DNA of 61,860 nt from Ignavibacteriota bacterium. GTDB lineage: Bacteria > Bacteroidota > Ignavibacteria > UBA10030 > UBA6906. The position numbers and the translations under genes were made by a program. Every line of letters starts with the position of its first letter. Position 1 is the first letter of the stretch. Below the pieces are notes generated by a model. It saw only the letters and a list, made by a program, of their open reading frames with translations. It ran no database searches and was not told the DNA's origin. The stretch covers positions 41,347 through 103,206 of the forward strand of contig PMJQ01000184.1 in NCBI GenBank assembly GCA_003157485.1, written 5' to 3'. Shown here piece by piece: positions 42,204 to 49,290 of the stretch.

Positions 42204-42232
42204 TTGACACTCCCCGGGCGGTGCAGTATCTT
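42204..42232 (+). promoter_or_regulatory. Putative recG promoter
   Basis: TTGACA-N17-TATCTT. Confidence 0.75.
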
Positions 42233-42241
42233 GCACGCGAC

Positions 42242-44503
42242 ATGCACTCCCCCGCTCATCCTTCCGACCTTTACTCCATCCCGGTGCAATTTGTCAAGGG
42301 GATCGGTCCCAGGAAATCCGCCCTGCTGGACAGGGCGGGCATAAGGACCGTCGAGGATCTGCTTCTTCACATCCCCCGCCGGTACATCGACAGGACGACC
42401 GTTCTCACGATTGCGCAGCTCCGCAGGGCGGCGGAGACGGGGACCGGGGAGCCGTCTCCTGCCGGGGAGAATTCCGCCGCCGCAGACACCCGCCGTGAGT
42501 TCACCGTCGTCGGAGAGGTGCGTTCCTTCCGCCTGCTCGGGTTCGGAGCGAAGTCCAGGTTCCTCCTCGTCCTCGGAGACCGGACGGGCTCACTGCAGTG
42601 CGTCTGGTTCGGCGGGGTGCAGTACTGGAAGAAGATGTTCAATATCGGTGAAACGCTGGCGGTGTCGGGGGAGCCCGGAATGTACGGGGGCGCCCTGCAG
42701 TTCGTCCATCCCGACATCGACCGGATGACGGCGCCCGAAGGGGGGGAAGAGGGGAGAGGGTCGACGCAGTGGGTAGACGCCCTGAACACCGGAGGGCTCG
42801 TCCCGGTGTATCCGTCGGGGCAGGAGCTTGCGCGCGCTGGGCTCGACAGCGGCGGATTCCGCAGGGTGATCGCCGGAGCCCTGAAAACGTACGGTGCCCT
42901 CTTCCCGGAGATGCTTCCCCTCGCCGTCACGGAGGCGCGGCGGCTTGTGCCGGCGCGCGTGGCGCTCCAGTCCGTCCACAGGCCCGCATCGCGGGGGGAT
43001 CTCGGCGAGGCGCTGCGGCGTCTGAAATACGAAGAGCTCTTCCGTTTTCAGCTCAAGCTCGCAATGAAGCGGCGCATGACGCGCGAAGAATCGGGAGGGA
43101 TCGCGTTCACCGTGAAGTCCCGCCTGGCGCGTTCGCTCGTGGATTCGCTTCCCTTCGTGCTCACACGCGCGCAGGTCCGCGTCGTGCAGGAAATCACCGC
43201 GGACATGGCGTCGCCGCACGTCATGAACCGGCTCCTCCAGGGCGACGTCGGAAGCGGGAAGACCGTCGTCGCGCTTATCGCCATGCTGATCGCGGCCGAT
43301 AACGGGTACCAGTCGGTCTTCATGGCGCCCACGGAGCTCCTTGCCGAGCAGCATTTCAGAACCCTCCGGCGGCTCCTGGCCGGCAGCCCGGTTGCAATCC
43401 GCCTTCTCGTCGGCGCGCAGCGGAGCGCGCTCCGGCGGGATGTTCTCGAAGATGTCCGCGCGGGCACTGCGCAGATCATCGTCGGGACCCATGCCCTCTT
43501 CGAGAAGGATGTCGCGTTCGCGCGGCTCGGGTTCGTCGTGATCGACGAGCAGCACCGTTTCGGGGTCATGCAGCGCGCGACGCTGCGCGGGAAGGGGGCG
43601 AATCCCGACGTGCTCGTGATGACGGCGACGCCGATTCCGCGAACGCTCTCACTGACGCTGTACGGCGACCTCGACGTGTCGGTGCTTGACGAACTCCCCC
43701 GCGGAAGGAAGCCGGTGACGACGGTGCTGAAGAGCGATGCGGACATGGCGTCGGTCGCGGCGTTCGTCCGCGAACAGGTCGCCGCCGGGCGCCAGGCGTA
43801 TTATGTCTACCCGCTCATCGAGGAATCGGAGACGCTCGACCTCAAAGCAGCGACCGTGCATTACGAGCGGCTCCAGAAGGAGATGTTTCCCGGCCTCAGG
43901 CTCGGCCTGATCCACGGCCGACTTCCGGGAGAGGAGCGCGACGCGGTGATGGGGCGCTTCGCGCGCGGCGACATCGACGTCCTTGTGGCGACGACGGTCA
44001 TCGAGGTGGGGATCGACGTGGGCAACGCCACCGTCATGGTGATCGAGAACGCGGAGCGGTTCGGACTTTCGCAGCTTCATCAGCTCCGCGGCCGCGTCGG
44101 ACGCGGGAGCGACAGCGCGTTCTGCATTCTCGTCGCAAAAAAGTGGATCGCAGGGAGGGCGGGACGCGCCGCCGCGCGCGCACAGACGCCTGCGGCGGAT
44201 CAAGGCGCGCTTGCGGAACGCCGGCTTGCCGCCATGGTGACGACGTCGGACGGATTCAGGATCGCCGAGATCGATCTTCAGCTCCGCGGTCCCGGAGATT
44301 TCTTCGGCACGCGGCAAAGCGGCGTGCCGGAATTCAGAATCGCGGACATCATCGCGGACGCTCCGCTTCTCGACGAAGCGCGCGTCGACGCGTTCGCGAT
44401 CATCGAGAGCGATCCGATCCTCGCGCGCGCGGAACACCGGCCGCTCCTCGCATACCTCCGCTCGCGGTACCACGACGAGATGAAGTTGCTTGATGTCGGA
44501 TGA
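42242..44503 (+). CDS. recG: ATP-dependent DNA helicase RecG
   Basis: KGIGP, RLLQGDVGSGKT, IDEQHRFGV.QR, MTATPIPRTL, ERFGLSQLHQLRGRVGR and DLQLRGPGDFFGTRQSG. Confidence 0.97.
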   Translation: MHSPAHPSDLYSIPVQFVKGIGPRKSALLDRAGIRTVEDLLLHIPRRYIDRTTVLTIAQLRRAAETGTGEPSPAGENSAAADTRREFTVVGEVRSFRLLGFGAKSRFLLVLGDRTGSLQCVWFGGVQYWKKMFNIGETLAVSGEPGMYGGALQFVHPDIDRMTAPEGGEEGRGSTQWVDALNTGGLVPVYPSGQELARAGLDSGGFRRVIAGALKTYGALFPEMLPLAVTEARRLVPARVALQSVHRPASRGDLGEALRRLKYEELFRFQLKLAMKRRMTREESGGIAFTVKSRLARSLVDSLPFVLTRAQVRVVQEITADMASPHVMNRLLQGDVGSGKTVVALIAMLIAADNGYQSVFMAPTELLAEQHFRTLRRLLAGSPVAIRLLVGAQRSALRRDVLEDVRAGTAQIIVGTHALFEKDVAFARLGFVVIDEQHRFGVMQRATLRGKGANPDVLVMTATPIPRTLSLTLYGDLDVSVLDELPRGRKPVTTVLKSDADMASVAAFVREQVAAGRQAYYVYPLIEESETLDLKAATVHYERLQKEMFPGLRLGLIHGRLPGEERDAVMGRFARGDIDVLVATTVIEVGIDVGNATVMVIENAERFGLSQLHQLRGRVGRGSDSAFCILVAKKWIAGRAGRAAARAQTPAADQGALAERRLAAMVTTSDGFRIAEIDLQLRGPGDFFGTRQSGVPEFRIADIIADAPLLDEARVDAFAIIESDPILARAEHRPLLAYLRSRYHDEMKLLDVG

Positions 44504-44544: not shown

Positions 44545-44572
44545 TTGACAACAAAGCGAAAATGCTTATATT
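44545..44572 (+). promoter_or_regulatory. Putative promoter of the ATP-grasp/GNAT/KamA operon
   Basis: TTGACA-N16-TATATT. Confidence 0.7.
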
Positions 44573-44581
44573 AACACACAG

Positions 44582-44659
44582 ATGATCAGTGAGTCGAACA
44601 GTTTGGAGCTTTTCTGGATCCTTCGTCACCACAGGTTCCTTCTTTCTCGGAGACGTTAG
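44582..44659 (+). CDS. Candidate leader peptide (uORF), 25 aa: MISESNSLELFWILRHHRFLLSRRR
   Basis: ATG lies ~3 nt after the predicted +1. Five Arg codons in the last 11 (CGT, AGG, CGG, AGA, CGT). The TAG overlaps the ligase's N-terminal beta strand in another frame. Confidence 0.4.
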   Translation: MISESNSLELFWILRHHRFLLSRRR

Positions 44660-45837
44660 CTCTCCTCTACAACGTAAAGTCGGAAGCTCCACCTCACTCA
44701 GATGCCGGCATCGCCCGCGCGAAGTCACCTTCCTCCACCGCATCTCGTTCCGCTTCAGCCGTTGATCATCCCGTTGATCATCCCGTTGATCATCCCGTTG
44801 ATCATCAAGGAGCAGCACCGTCGCTGGAGACGGTTGATGCGTCCGCACGCGTGAACGATCTGTTCGCCGAATGGGATACCGCGGACACCGTCACGGCCGT
44901 CAGGGATGCTCTCGCCGGGCGGTACGACGTTACTATGATAGAAGCGGACGAAGACGCATACGAAAAACTGCGTAAAATAAGGCCGTTTTTCGCTTTCAAC
45001 ATCGCGGAAGGACTTTACGGTCCCTCGCGTGAAGGGCAGGTCCCCTCCATGCTCGAGATGCTCCGCATCCCGTATCTCGGCTCTGATCCGCTGACGCTTG
45101 GGATTTGTCTCGTCAAGTCGCGCACAAAAGAGGTTCTCTCGTATTACGGCGTACCGACCGCGCCGCACGCCGTCATCGCGTCGATGGACGAGTGCCGCGA
45201 TTTGCAGATCGGGTTTCCGTCGATCGTTAAGCCGCTTCATGAAGGATCGAGCAAGGGGATCTACGACTCCTGCGTCGTGCGCACCGCCGCGGAGCGCGAA
45301 CGGGAAGTGGAGACCGTTCTCGGGACGTACGGCGAGCCCGCGCTTGTGGAGGAATTCCTCCCGGGCCGGGAATTCACCGTGGCCATGATGGGGAACGGCG
45401 ATGGGCTCCGTGTCCTCCCGGTCGTCGAGATCAATTTCGACGCCCTTCCCCCCGGCGCCAACCCGATTTATTCCTACGAGGCGAAGTGGATCTGGGATAC
45501 GGTCGAACGGCCTCTTGACATCTATGCGTGTCCTGCTCCCCTGGACGACCGGCTCCTCGGCGGTATCGAGAGGCTCTGCCGGAAGACCTATACAGTTCTC
45601 CGCTGCCGCGACTGGACGCGCATCGACCTCCGCTGCGACGCGGCGGGGAAACCCCGTATCATTGAAGTCAACCCCCTCCCGGGCATCCTCCCCAGGCCCG
45701 AGGACAATTCCTGTTTTCCCAAAGCGGCCCGCGCCGCGGGGATGACCTATAACGGGCTCATCAACTCAGTCCTTGATATCGCCATGACGCGATGCGGGAT
45801 CCCTGTCCGGGACGGTCGGCACGCGGTGCCCGCGTGA
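44614..45837 (+). CDS. Ddl-like ATP-grasp ligase 1 (non-canonical); start unresolved (CTG 44614 proposed; ORF track starts at 44851)
   Basis: Frame open from 44593, containing LALLYNVK (compare IAILYNE in the paralog), FNIAEG, VKPLHEGSSKG, EEFLPGREF, YEAKW, RID and EVNPLPG. Confidence 0.8.
   Translation: MDPSSPQVPSFSETLALLYNVKSEAPPHSDAGIARAKSPSSTASRSASAVDHPVDHPVDHPVDHQGAAPSLETVDASARVNDLFAEWDTADTVTAVRDALAGRYDVTMIEADEDAYEKLRKIRPFFAFNIAEGLYGPSREGQVPSMLEMLRIPYLGSDPLTLGICLVKSRTKEVLSYYGVPTAPHAVIASMDECRDLQIGFPSIVKPLHEGSSKGIYDSCVVRTAAEREREVETVLGTYGEPALVEEFLPGREFTVAMMGNGDGLRVLPVVEINFDALPPGANPIYSYEAKWIWDTVERPLDIYACPAPLDDRLLGGIERLCRKTYTVLRCRDWTRIDLRCDAAGKPRIIEVNPLPGILPRPEDNSCFPKAARAAGMTYNGLINSVLDIAMTRCGIPVRDGRHAVPA
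44759..44806 (+). repeat. Four perfect tandem copies of CCGTTGATCATC
   Basis: Read directly; in the ligase frame it encodes VDHP-VDHP-VDHP-VDH(Q). Confidence 0.97.
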
Positions 45838-45889
45838 AGAACTGCGTGGCAGAATGAGGCGAACGAAACAGGCGAAGCGAGATCACCCT

Positions 45890-46999
45890 ATGGCCAGAAA
45901 AACCCGCATTGCGATTCTCTATAATGAACCCGTCGTCGGCACCGAGGCGGGACGGAAGTACATCGGGGAGAACGGAAAGCTGCAGGAAGGTCCGCTCCCG
46001 GTCCGTGCGCCGAGAACCGCCCGCGGCAAGACGCTGGCGACGCAGGCCCTCATTGATCTCTCCGAGATCGGGGTTGTGGAGGAAATGGAGGACATCAAGT
46101 CCGCCCTCAATTCCCTCGGCTACCGGACGACGATATTCAACGTGGACAGCAACTTCTTCAGGCTCATCGACTACCTTCGCGACGACCGCCCCGACCTCGT
46201 CTTCAATCTCGTCGAGAGCGTCGAGAACGAATCCGCGCAGGAAATGAATGTGGCGGGGGTCTACGAGCTGATGAACATCCCGTTCACGGGTGCAGGTCCG
46301 CTCGCCCTGGGGACCGCGCTGAACAAGCCCAGGGTCAAGGAGATCCTCGCCGCGCACGGGATACGGACCCCCCGGTTTATGGTCTTCGGCATCAAGGATA
46401 GGGTGGCAATGCAGGACGGCATGACGTTTCCTCTCATCGTCAAACCGGCGCATGAAGACGCGAGCGTCGGCATCGACGACTGCTCCGTCGTGTACAATCT
46501 CGCCGATCTCCGGAAACGCGCGCGGTTCATCCAGACGGAATACGACCAGCCCGCGTTGGCGGAGGAATACATCGACGGGAGGGAGCTGAACGTCGCGATA
46601 CTGGGGAACAAGCCCCCGGTCGCACTGCCGATATCGGAGATCGATTTCTCCGGACTGACGGACGACATGCACAAGATCGTGAGCTACGAGGCGAAATGGA
46701 TACACGGCACCGTGGCCTATGAAGGGACGAAGGGGGTCTGCCCCGCGGTGCTCCCCGCACAGCTCGAAGCACGGATCAAAGAAACGGCGATCCGCGCGTA
46801 TTCCCTCATCGGCTGCCGCGACTATGCGCGCGTGGATTTCCGGCTGACAAAAGACGGGATCCCGTACGTTCTCGAAGTCAATCCGAACCCCGACATCTCC
46901 GATGACGCGGGATTCGCCCGCTCCGCGCGCTCGCAGGGCTACACGTTTTCGGAGATTGTGGGGAGGATCGTCGAGTCGGCGCTGGAGCGGAGACCGTGA
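45890..46999 (+). CDS. Ddl-like ATP-grasp ligase 2 (non-canonical)
   Basis: IAILYN, FNLVES, PFTG, VKPAHEDASVG, EEYIDGRE, YEAKW, RVD and EVNPNPD. Alternative start at 45854. Confidence 0.85.
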   Translation: MARKTRIAILYNEPVVGTEAGRKYIGENGKLQEGPLPVRAPRTARGKTLATQALIDLSEIGVVEEMEDIKSALNSLGYRTTIFNVDSNFFRLIDYLRDDRPDLVFNLVESVENESAQEMNVAGVYELMNIPFTGAGPLALGTALNKPRVKEILAAHGIRTPRFMVFGIKDRVAMQDGMTFPLIVKPAHEDASVGIDDCSVVYNLADLRKRARFIQTEYDQPALAEEYIDGRELNVAILGNKPPVALPISEIDFSGLTDDMHKIVSYEAKWIHGTVAYEGTKGVCPAVLPAQLEARIKETAIRAYSLIGCRDYARVDFRLTKDGIPYVLEVNPNPDISDDAGFARSARSQGYTFSEIVGRIVESALERRP

Positions 47000-47466
47000 T
47001 TCGCCCGCTCGGCCGCGAAGACCGCGGGCCGCTCAGGGATCTCGTTGTGGCGACGGGGGTGTTCACGGATGATGAGGTGGAGATCGCGCTGGAGCTTATC
47101 GATATAGTCCTCAATGATCCGGGGCAGAAGGACTACATCATCCGTGTGTACGAAGAGGGGGGAAAGGCGGCCGGCTACTATTGCGTGGGGCCGACGCCCG
47201 CGACGGAGGGGACGTTCGATCTGTACTGGGTGGCCGTCGACCCTGCACTGCACGGACGGGGGATTGGCCGGGCGCTGGACGATCACGCATGCGCGCTGAT
47301 TCGGGGGATGTCGGGGCGGCTTGTCATCGCTGAAACGTCGTCCCTTCCCCGCTACGGGCCGACGAGGGAGTTTTACCGGCGGAGGGGATACAGTGAGGTT
47401 GCGAAAATTGCGGATTATTATAGGCCGGGGGATGACCTCGTCGTCTACGGCAAATATCTGAAATAA
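46996..47466 (+). CDS. GNAT family N-acetyltransferase
   Basis: LYWVAVDP..HGRGIG acetyl-CoA motif and FYRRRGY; GTGA overlap with ligase 2. Confidence 0.9.
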   Translation: MIRPLGREDRGPLRDLVVATGVFTDDEVEIALELIDIVLNDPGQKDYIIRVYEEGGKAAGYYCVGPTPATEGTFDLYWVAVDPALHGRGIGRALDDHACALIRGMSGRLVIAETSSLPRYGPTREFYRRRGYSEVAKIADYYRPGDDLVVYGKYLK

Positions 47467-47492
47467 CCTGAAGGGGAGGATCAAAGGTACGA

Positions 47493-48629
47493 ATGGAACT
47501 CTGGCAGACCATGCTGCGGCAGAGTGTGGACAGCGGAAAAGACCTCGTGGAGAGGTTCGGGTTCGATAAAGACCTCTCGGAACGATTAAACAAGCTCTTC
47601 CACATACGAATCAACCCATACTATCTGAGCCTGATACGGTATCCCGGCGACCCGATCTGGCTCCAGTGCATTCCCGACGGGAAGGAGCTTGACGAAGACG
47701 ACTTCCCCGAGGATCCTCTCGCGGAAGACTCCCACAGCCCCGTTCCCAGCATCGTCCACCGTTATCCCGACCGGGTGCTCTTCCTCACCACGAGCCAGTG
47801 CTCGATGTACTGCCGGTTCTGCACGAGAAAGCGGAAGGTGGGCGACTCCACCAAGATCAACATGAAGTACATCCAGGGGGGGATCGACTACATCGCGGCG
47901 CACCCCGAGGTGCGCGACGTCATCCTCTCCGGCGGCGATCCGCTGATGCTCACCGACTACATGCTCGAGAGGATCATCGCCGGGCTCCGGGACCTCCCGC
48001 ACGTGGAGATCATCCGGCTGGGGACAAAAATGCCGTGCGTGCTCCCCCAGAGGATCACGCCGAAACTCTGCAAGATGCTCCGCAAGTATCACCCCATCTA
48101 CGTCAACACGCACTTTAATCATCCCTGGGAATGCACCGCCGAGGCGAAGCGGGCATGCGAGATGCTTGCGGACGCGGGAATCCCCGTGGGGAACCAGGCG
48201 GTGCTGATGAAGGGGGTGAACGACTCGGCGGAGGTGATGCTTGAGCTGATGCGCAAGCTCCTGACGATGCGCGTCAGGCCGTACTACCTGTATCAGGCGG
48301 ACATCACGAAGGGGGCGAACCATTTCCGCACGCCGGTGAGCGTCGGGCTCGAAATCATGGACAAGCTCCGCGGCCACACCTCGGGCCTTGCCATCCCCGC
48401 GTTTGTCATCGATGCCCCCGGGGGGGGCGGCAAGATTCCCCTCCTCCCGCAATACGTGCTCGGGAGGAACGGGAACCAGATCATCCTCCGGAACTACAAA
48501 TACGACATCTTCACGTATCCCGACGTCGACGACGGGGTGAAGTCACCCGCGCCGGGGGTGGAGAAACGGTTCTCGCGGAAAAAAGGACGTCCGGCGAAAG
48601 TGTACCAGCCCGACAAGGTGCAGGTCTAG
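47493..48629 (+). CDS. KamA family radical SAM/PLP aminomutase (lysine 2,3-aminomutase-like)
   Basis: HRYPDR, CSMYCRFCTR, LSGGDP, THFNHP, NQAVL.KGVND, PYYLYQAD, LRGHTSG and IDAPGGGGK (PLP Lys). Confidence 0.93.
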   Translation: MELWQTMLRQSVDSGKDLVERFGFDKDLSERLNKLFHIRINPYYLSLIRYPGDPIWLQCIPDGKELDEDDFPEDPLAEDSHSPVPSIVHRYPDRVLFLTTSQCSMYCRFCTRKRKVGDSTKINMKYIQGGIDYIAAHPEVRDVILSGGDPLMLTDYMLERIIAGLRDLPHVEIIRLGTKMPCVLPQRITPKLCKMLRKYHPIYVNTHFNHPWECTAEAKRACEMLADAGIPVGNQAVLMKGVNDSAEVMLELMRKLLTMRVRPYYLYQADITKGANHFRTPVSVGLEIMDKLRGHTSGLAIPAFVIDAPGGGGKIPLLPQYVLGRNGNQIILRNYKYDIFTYPDVDDGVKSPAPGVEKRFSRKKGRPAKVYQPDKVQV

Positions 48630-48674
48630 CCGGGCAGTGCTGCCGGAGGAGCGGCGTCCGCTTCACGAGACACA

Positions 48675-48705
48675 AAGAGCCCGCCGGGTTGTCCGGCGGG
48701 CTCTT
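48675..48705. terminator. Hairpin between convergent kamA-like gene and response regulator
   Basis: AAGAGCCCGCCGG-gttgt-CCGGCGGGCTCTT, 13-bp stem with A/T ends usable in both directions. Confidence 0.8.
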
Positions 48706-48768: not shown

Positions 48769-49128
48769 CTACTTGACTTTCCCCGCGAACAGCTGGAGCA
48801 GCTTGTCGATGGGAAAAGGCTTCTGCAGGAGCAGATCGCAGTCCTGCTTGCACTCGGCCTTGACCTTCGTGATGTCGTCCACTCCGGTGAGAAAAATAAA
48901 CGGCGTGTTTCTGTGTTCCAGACGTTCCCGGAGTTTCCTGTGGAATTCGATCCCGTCCATCTCCGGCATCTTTACATCGGAAACCACGACGTCGATCTGC
49001 TGGCGGTCGAGAAGTGCAAGCGCTTCCTTTCCGTTCTGTGCGATGGTGATCGAGTGTCCGAGGCTTTTCATCACTTCCTGCAACATCTCAAGGTATTCCG
49101 GCTCATCTTCCACTGCGAGAATTCTCAT
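48769..49128 (-). CDS. Stand-alone CheY-like response regulator receiver
   Basis: ILAVEDE, VVSDVKMPEMDG (phospho-Asp), FLTG and KPF; GGAGGT SD. Confidence 0.92.
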   Translation of the reverse strand: MRILAVEDEPEYLEMLQEVMKSLGHSITIAQNGKEALALLDRQQIDVVVSDVKMPEMDGIEFHRKLRERLEHRNTPFIFLTGVDDITKVKAECKQDCDLLLQKPFPIDKLLQLFAGKVK

Positions 49129-49171
49129 GCCGACCTCCGTGATGAGGTGCGCTTCAACGTGTGCGTGACTC

Positions 49172-49200
49172 AAGATACGCTACCTTGCCCGTCTTGTCAA
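49172..49200 (-). promoter_or_regulatory. Putative promoter of the response regulator
   Basis: Minus strand reads TTGACA-N17-TATCTT. Confidence 0.75.
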
Positions 49201-49222: not shown

Positions 49223-49286
49223 GCGGGCCCGAGGTGGCGCCGCTCTTAGGCGCCACTGTGCGCCGCTCTTTGGTGCCGCAGGCGCC
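49223..49286. repeat. GGCGCC-family repeat (copy 4) between divergent -35 boxes
   Basis: Three perfect and two one-mismatch GGCGCC; 23-bp-period tandem; inverse of 33950-83. Confidence 0.85.
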
Positions 49287-49290
49287 GCCG

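Follow-up and report, generated by a model that had tools for sequence, protein, structure and literature searches.

A conserved operon encoding a lysine-type KamA aminomutase, a GNAT acetyltransferase, and two Ddl-fold ligases is a candidate pathway to an N-acetylated beta-lysine amide

Introduction

What does a bacterium make when a relative of lysine 2,3-aminomutase (KamA), a small GNAT acetyltransferase, and two ATP-grasp ligases related to D-alanine-D-alanine ligase (Ddl) are encoded side by side? The window analyzed here, a stretch of 61,860 nucleotides (nt) from an Ignavibacteriota bacterium (GenBank assembly GCA_003157485.1, contig PMJQ01000184.1, positions 41,347 to 103,206 of the forward strand), carries such a set of genes between window positions 44545 and 48705. 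An earlier note, written from the DNA sequence without database searches, had described the set as a self-contained operon in which beta-lysine is made, ligated by two distinct enzymes, and N-acetylated. What that note observed is confirmed by the analysis below, and its interpretation is partly supported. We find that the four genes form one conserved operon that probably converts lysine to beta-lysine and processes it by N-acetylation and by two distinct ATP-dependent amide ligations. The evidence for this reading comes from the anatomy of the operon, its synteny and its occurrence in other phyla, the separate orthology of the two ligases, a natural fusion of the second ligase to a GNAT domain, the substrate pocket of the KamA-family enzyme, the Ddl folds of the ligases, and RNA-derived contigs. 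The enzyme families are known ones, and their combination in this cassette is undescribed; full-text literature searches returned no paper that describes it.

Results

Operon anatomy

Using Pfam and NCBIfam, the four proteins were assigned as two Ddl-family ATP-grasp enzymes (here ligase A and ligase B), a GNAT acetyltransferase, and a KamA-family radical S-adenosylmethionine (SAM) enzyme. Their genes are closely packed on the plus strand in this order:

44545-44572, plus strand: sigma-70-type promoter, TTGACA-16 nt-TATATT, 11 of 12 consensus positions
44614-45837, plus strand: ligase A, type A Ddl-family ATP-grasp enzyme, 407 amino acids (aa) if started at a CTG codon; the open reading frame (ORF) lister gives 44851-45837
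45890-46999, plus strand: ligase B, type B Ddl-family ATP-grasp enzyme, 369 aa; the listed ORF, 45854-46999, begins at an alternative ATG in the same frame
46996-47466, plus strand: small GNAT acetyltransferase of the PDB 2R7H family, 156 aa, Pfam Acetyltransf_7/1
47493-48629, plus strand: KamA-family radical-SAM/pyridoxal phosphate 2,3-aminomutase, 378 aa; pocket of the lysine type, zinc-site cysteines absent
48675-48705, no strand assigned: GC-rich hairpin of 13 bp with a 5-nt loop, -31.5 kcal/mol, z = -3.5, with 0 of 200 shuffles folding as well

The description of a self-contained unit with its own promoter, tight gene spacing, and a closing hairpin was upheld. The operon is flanked by recG (42221-44503) on one side and on the other by a gene for a receiver-only response regulator, which lies on the minus strand (48769-49173) and converges on kamA. 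The genes for ligases A and B are 52 nt apart if ligase B starts at ATG 45890 and 16 nt apart if it starts at ATG 45854; most homologues of ligase B are 365-370 aa long and align from residue 13, and the start was placed at ATG 45890. The GNAT gene begins with a GTG that overlaps the stop codon of ligase B by 4 nt (GTGA) and is preceded by GGAGCGGAGA, and kamA follows the GNAT gene after 26 nt, with a GGGGAGG site 13 nt upstream of its start. The promoter boxes stand at the same distance from the ligase A gene in 20 relatives, and the operon in the Ignavibacteria lineage is predicted to be driven by a strong sigma-70-type promoter. The hairpin was not listed by a terminator scan because its plus strand has no U-run; its minus strand continues with TTTGTGT. 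It is thus an element shared by the convergent kamA and response-regulator genes and not a textbook intrinsic terminator. The only Rfam match at E ≤ 1, which is below threshold, is ftsZ-DE on this hairpin (27.6 vs 72.2 bits).

Control by a riboswitch or leader RNA was considered and rejected: Rfam gave no match above threshold, and RNAalifold predicted zero conserved pairs among 20 leaders. A conserved stem sequestering the Shine-Dalgarno site is, for the latter reason, also unsupported. Contigs from four metatranscriptomes of peat or wetland are identical to ligase A and kamA, with zero differences, and indicate that the module is transcribed in situ.

Conservation and distribution of the module

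Species-representative genomes were scanned with ligase B, which gave at least 582 confirmed relatives, and the best 80 loci, all from Ignavibacteria-type metagenome-assembled genomes (MAGs), were examined. Among those of their contigs that are long enough to show gene order, nearly all have recG-ligA-ligB-GNAT-kamA, with recG and dnaG, both housekeeping genes, as conserved neighbors of the operon. The earlier note had made its reading depend on synteny in relatives; synteny of all four genes holds in most of these 80 genomes, and they also occur together in other phyla. There are six exceptions among the 80. At L075, L077, and L078 a ligase B paralogue stands alone, with functionally uninformative neighbors (a TPR protein, an isochorismatase, a HAD protein, and a TonB receptor); L045 and L046 have no recognizable GNAT; and L058 has a third ligase. 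At L045 the gap between ligase B and kamA is 57 nt and at L046 it is about 650 nt; the GNAT of these two may have been lost, moved, or diverged. At L058 (4895-7062), ligase B is present as a tandem pair between ligase A and the GNAT, and the two copies share 48% and 53% identity with ligase B of the window.

Beyond Ignavibacteria, a search seeded with 2R7H recovered the KamA-ligase-ligase-GNAT module in 8 of the 10 contexts of 2R7H-like GNATs, among them Desulfovibrio mangrovi, a Desulfovibrio-type contig, a Planctomycetota MAG, and other metagenome contigs; in Desulfovibrio and Planctomycetota the gene order differs from that of Ignavibacteria. Inside three of these eight modules (Desulfovibrio mangrovi, the Planctomycetota MAG, and a further metagenome contig) is a gene for a PF00850 deacetylase, sometimes fused to a GNAT domain; a deacetylase gene in or beside the operon was found neither in the window nor at the 80 Ignavibacteria-type loci. 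The Planctomycetota module adjoins an amino-acid permease gene. In Desulfovibrio mangrovi and the Desulfovibrio-type genome (L081 and L083), a sigma-54 enhancer-binding protein is encoded upstream of KamA, so that regulation of the module there differs from the sigma-70-type promoter of Ignavibacteria. An exhaustive search of representative sequences returned 1,879 clusters at E ≤ 1e-30, among them a fusion of ligase B to a GNAT domain. In none of the contexts seen is the module linked to a mur, fts, or racemase gene, to efp, or to a gene for a ribosomal protein.

The KamA-family aminomutase

The KamA-family protein of the window aligns with the lysine 2,3-aminomutase of Clostridium subterminale (PDB 2A5H) at 410 bits, with CSMYCRFC over C125/C129/C132 and GGGGK over K337. 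In lysine 2,3-aminomutase, Arg134 binds the lysine carboxylate, and Asp293 and Asp330 bind the epsilon-ammonium group; the latter two are replaced in glutamate 2,3-aminomutase. The alignment places all of these in the window protein, as Arg134 (CTR), Asp293 (YQAD), and Asp330 (IDAP), together with Lys337 (GGGGK), as had been claimed before. A pattern search found the four residues kept in 75 of 75 module-linked KamAs, and they are also present in two Planctomycetota-type copies that were aligned separately. Because both epsilon-ammonium ligands are conserved, the substrate is best read as lysine-like, and the cationic substrate proposed earlier agrees with the lysine-type pocket of every module-linked KamA checked. 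The absence of zinc-binding cysteines was likewise borne out: Cys268 of 2A5H is Ser (VNDS) in the window protein, all relatives have D, N, S, or E there, and the C-terminal tail has zero cysteines and no Cys cluster.

By family models, the protein passes TIGR00238 (KamA family; 304 bits vs a cut-off of 199.2), and its best-scoring model is the AblA equivalog TIGR03820, whose cut-off it does not reach (469.5 vs 525.4 bits). Scores against the glutamate, arginine, and EpmB models are lower (EpmB, 240 bits). AblA and AblB form a KamA plus GNAT route to N-epsilon-acetyl-beta-lysine in methanogens and some bacteria, with kamA-yodP as the Bacillus example. The module resembles this system in pairing a lysine-pocket KamA-type aminomutase with an acetyl-CoA-dependent GNAT in one operon; unlike AblA, its KamA has no zinc-site cysteines and stays under the equivalog cut-off.

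Two side observations concern a small cysteine-rich protein of the CxxCxxCC / DUF3109 type. One gene for it lies between KamA and ligase A at L085 (3671-4195), and in P0288 such a protein forms the N-terminal part of a fusion with a ligase. Where the KamA has no zinc-site cysteines, this protein may assist it as a partner that carries a metal cluster.

Two ancient ligase groups with a Ddl fold

Both ligases match Pfam Dala_Dala_lig_C (ligase A, 6e-32; ligase B, 2e-36), with RimK reached only at 9e-4, and they are 35% identical to each other. Each aligns to many Ddl structures at about 100 bits and about 25-30% identity. They miss the Ddl models NF002378/TIGR01205 (183/144 bits for ligase A and 171/145 bits for ligase B, with cut-offs of 243/246), which agrees with the earlier description of both as non-canonical. 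AlphaFold2 models had predicted local distance difference test (pLDDT) values of 85 for ligase A and 87.7 for ligase B. When the ligase A model, the only model searched, was compared with known structures by Foldseek, the top matches were Ddl enzymes with template modeling scores of 0.83-0.85 on the target, and several of the alignments were full-length.

Like DdlB (PDB 2DLN/1IOV; Pseudomonas aeruginosa DdlB, 8EVY), the module ligases have the three-domain ATP-grasp fold, and the equivalents of K215, R255, D257, E270, and N272 do not vary among the 41 sequences of type A and the 38 of type B that were aligned. Both ligases are predicted to be catalytically equipped, but not Ddl-grade. Unlike DdlB, both have YEAKW in place of YEAKY, so that the Tyr216 equivalent is Trp, both have a five-residue insert after the omega-loop lysine, and in both the GGxSxE loop, which contributes Glu15, is absent and a 30-60 residue insert stands instead. 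In ligase A, EGSS is unchanged, and so are the oxyanion Gly and the residue that corresponds to Ser281 (S150, G276, and S281 equivalents kept). In ligase B, EDAS for EGSS, NPNPD for NxxPG, and DAGF place A, D, and A at the equivalents of positions 150, 276, and 281, and the L282 equivalent is also changed. The substitutions listed in the earlier note (YEAKW in both ligases, EDAS and NPNPD in ligase B) were all recovered by alignment. Across phyla, the invariant residues of type A include the E and D of AE(W/F)D, FNIAEG, and RE, and those of type B include FNLVE, the serine of DAS, AKW, and NxNP. An acidic residue after the first strand (beta1) of type A (YNxKxE / YDLRAD) could be register-equivalent to the Glu15 loop.

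In a maximum-likelihood tree, the split between type A and type B has support of 99/97, and Ignavibacteria-type, Desulfovibrio, and Planctomycetota-type members lie on each side of it. With several phyla represented on both sides, the two ligases belong to distinct and non-redundant orthologous groups of ancient origin and are old partners, as the earlier claim of two distinct ligases would have it. A 675-aa, double-length ligase (P0280) was examined as a possible A-B fusion and was found to consist of two type A-like halves, and it therefore gives no evidence for an A/B complex.

The start and linker of ligase A

The absence of the GGxSxE motif from both ligases, also noted earlier, stands for the literal loop. 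For ligase A, part of the supposedly missing N-terminal motif is a gene-model artifact, because the protein had been read from too late a start: its N-terminal strand is encoded upstream of the listed one. The features involved are:

44605-44616, plus strand: Shine-Dalgarno GGAG, 5-nt spacer, and CTG as the probable start of ligase A (CTG at 44614), assigned by nucleotide conservation
44686-44838, plus strand: hypervariable linker in residues 25-75 of ligase A, predicted to be disordered, AlphaFold2 pLDDT below 50
44759-44806, plus strand: perfect tandem repeat of a 12-nt unit, four copies, CCGTTGATCATC, 100% matches, encoding (VDHP)4 within the linker

The listed start is GTG 44851, yet the frame is open from 44593, after a stop at 44590. 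Within this upstream segment, LALLYN (44656-44673) corresponds to beta1 and is the counterpart of IAILYN, the first strand of ligase B; beta1 is in frame in all relatives, with the consensus VALVYN. In the window, no ATG, GTG, or TTG occurs between the stop at 44590 and 44851, and none precedes beta1 in several genomes of the subclade (the window, L072, L012, L001, L015, and L003). The sole initiation signal that is conserved here is GGAG-N5-CTG, found without nucleotide changes in 19 of 20 relatives; the remaining one has GAGGA-N4-CTG. Beta1 follows the CTG at 42 nt in 18 relatives and at 33 nt in 1, always in frame. In the AlphaFold2 model, beta1 (residues 14-19) is a confident strand of the N-terminal domain. 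Given this conserved motif, the in-frame strand, and its confident modeling, we consider it likely that ligase A initiates at CTG 44614 and that the gene spans 44614-45837. More distant relatives use an ATG or TTG a few codons ahead of beta1, and weak or non-canonical initiation therefore seems typical for this gene. The conserved CTG start would be a clean natural case for the study of non-canonical initiation.

The linker that follows differs in length and sequence in every relative, with the frame always kept, and peat metagenomes contain a co-occurring strain variant in which 125 nt stand in place of 161 nt, an in-frame difference. The 12-nt repeat is missing from the closest relative (L001), and its copy number is taken from the window sequence alone, as k-mer contigs collapse across it.

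The GNAT acetyltransferase

The GNAT of the window is a direct homologue of PDB 2R7H (120 bits over 140 residues), a structural-genomics entry titled 'putative D-alanine N-acetyltransferase of GNAT family'. That name is only a guess from neighboring genes. A literature search found no functional paper on 2R7H, and the sole paper citing the code is unrelated. A protein nearly identical to 2R7H (P0121) is encoded in the Desulfovibrio-type module of L083, which places the structure in the same KamA-ligase-ligase-GNAT type of module. The earlier statement that this GNAT is not AblB was confirmed, as the AblB model TIGR03827 does not match it even at E ≤ 10; at 156 aa and in the 2R7H family it also differs from AblB, which has about 270 aa. 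Its sole match to a curated family is a weak one to RimI (28 bits). In the ligase B-GNAT fusion (P0270), the GNAT part aligns with the window GNAT from end to end (34% identity, 1e-28).

Proposed pathway and alternatives

In the pathway that we propose, the KamA-family enzyme would convert free L-lysine to beta-lysine (3,6-diaminohexanoate), as its conserved pocket residues, the only basis for this step, suggest. The small GNAT would use acetyl-CoA to acetylate an amino group, either on beta-lysine itself or on an intermediate of the ligations, and the two non-redundant Ddl-fold ligases would each form one amide bond via an acyl-phosphate. Ligase A probably joins two amino-acid-like partners, because it keeps the Ser281 equivalent that would contact the carboxylate of the nucleophile, the oxyanion glycine, and the invariant acidic residues of AE(W/F)D. 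Ligase B probably takes a different nucleophile, possibly one without a carboxylate, because its equivalents of Ser150, Gly276, and Ser281/Leu282 are replaced (DAS, NPNPD or NPC, DAGF). An amide or short peptide of N-acetylated beta-lysine would result in the cytoplasm, and a solute-like or polyamine-like role is possible for it.

A related logic is known from the Ngg/AsnO pathway to N-acetylglutaminylglutamine amide in Sinorhizobium and Pseudomonas, in which Ngg, a GNAT domain fused to an ATP-grasp ligase, makes an N-acetylated dipeptide solute. In its logic, the module shares with it the pairing of a GNAT with an ATP-grasp enzyme, including the fusion of ligase B to a GNAT, and differs from it in having an aminomutase, two ligases rather than one, and another ATP-grasp subfamily with other substrates.

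Several points weigh against the proposed pathway. To our knowledge, no enzyme activity or product has been reported for any member of the module. The substrate assignments of the ligases rest on residue equivalence to DdlB by pairwise or multiple alignment, not on structure superposition, and the CTG start of ligase A is argued from conservation only. The RNA evidence consists of assembled contigs only, without 5' ends or a transcription start, and with DNA carry-over possible. Acetylation may come before or after ligation. Finally, the PF00850 deacetylase linked to the module in some phyla may mean that the acetyl group is not in the final product. The N-acetylated end product foreseen in the earlier note needs correction to this extent: the acetyl group may be transient where the deacetylase is linked.

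This last point leads to the alternative that deserves most attention, in which acetyl serves as a protecting group only: the GNAT would block one amine so that beta-lysyl phosphate cannot cyclize, the deacetylase would then unmask the product, and the end product would be a free polycation, either oligo-beta-lysine or a beta-lysine amide of a polyamine (a putative chemistry). The three modules with an internal PF00850 gene, a family of the acetylpolyamine amidohydrolase or histone deacetylase-like type, agree with it, as do the acidic replacements at the nucleophile site of ligase B (NPNPDISDD, DAGF), which suit a cationic partner. We nevertheless judge it unlikely, as neither the window nor the 80 Ignavibacteria-type loci have a deacetylase in or beside the operon and no polyamine genes are linked. 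That the operon simply makes the known osmolyte N-epsilon-acetyl-beta-lysine, with the ligases unrelated or accessory, would follow the established logic of AblA/AblB and the best score of the KamA (AblA, at 469.5 bits). This is improbable to a clearly greater degree: the equivalog cut-off is not reached, the GNAT has no match to the AblB model and is about half the size of AblB, and the association of both ligases with KamA is conserved no less tightly than that of the GNAT, to which one of them even occurs fused. In having two conserved Ddl-fold ligases as obligatory partners, the module is unlike AblA/AblB.

Less likely still are roles in the cell wall or in protein modification. The closest solved structures and family models of the ligases are all Ddl or Van enzymes, and housekeeping genes (recG and dnaG) are conserved neighbors, as might be expected if one or both ligases were ordinary D-alanine-D-alanine ligases or added beta-lysine or another residue to the peptidoglycan stem; this is very improbable in view of scores well under the Ddl cut-offs, the long insert in place of the GGxSxE loop, the Tyr216 to Trp exchange in both ligases, the replacement of Ser150, Gly276, and Ser281 in ligase B, and the lack of linked mur, fts, or racemase genes in the contexts seen. 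Beta-lysine is a modifier of elongation factor P (EF-P) in gamma-proteobacteria, and a module that is near-universal within the class, sits among housekeeping genes, and includes a GNAT with a weak RimI-like match (28 bits) could conceivably beta-lysylate EF-P or a ribosomal protein independently of EpmA, with the ATP-grasp enzymes acting like RimK. We give this the smallest chance of all, since the KamA scores far higher as KamA/AblA (469 bits) than as EpmB (240 bits), the ligases are of the Ddl and not the RimK type, the contexts seen show no linkage to efp or to a gene for a ribosomal protein, and two ligases plus an acetyltransferase exceed the needs of the job. A microviridin-type graspetide cluster, which would combine two ATP-grasp enzymes with a GNAT, was also considered and rejected, because the ligases are Ddl-type and not of the RimK or MdnB/C type; no systematic search for precursor peptides was made, and an apparent precursor leader region turned out to be the N-terminus of ligase A.

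Returning to the biosynthetic pathway with two amide ligations, a bolder form of it, which we put forward tentatively and with the chances against it, is that the cassette makes a widespread but unrecognized class of beta-lysine metabolites. These could be polycations of the beta-peptide or beta-lysyl-amine kind, with a charge that reversible N-acetylation turns on and off (by the GNAT and, where present, the PF00850 enzyme). Such a substance would be a polyamine-like or protective compound of Ignavibacteria, Desulfovibrio, Planctomycetota, and others. If the pathway proposed above is right, it would represent a third widespread primary-metabolic fate of bacterial beta-lysine, besides lysine fermentation and the acetyl-beta-lysine osmolyte, and two ancient subfamilies with the D-alanine-D-alanine ligase fold would work outside the cell wall. 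This would matter for genome annotation, because ligase genes of this kind are routinely annotated as D-alanine-D-alanine ligase, and it would bear on how Ddl-targeted inhibitors are interpreted. The product should be directly discoverable, since the pathway comprises four genes, the structure of a member GNAT is solved (2R7H), and the module occurs in Desulfovibrio relatives, which are genetically tractable.

Neighboring sequence features

Downstream of the operon, the response-regulator gene encodes 134 aa (48769-49173, minus strand) and is kept at this place in about 15 of the 80 loci. Between it and dnaG lies an imperfect 23-nt tandem repeat, GGCGCCGCTCTTAGGCGCCACA, in 2.4 copies with GGCGCC palindromes (49235-49288), and a promoter-like TTGACA-17-TATCTT is found on the minus strand at 49200-49172.

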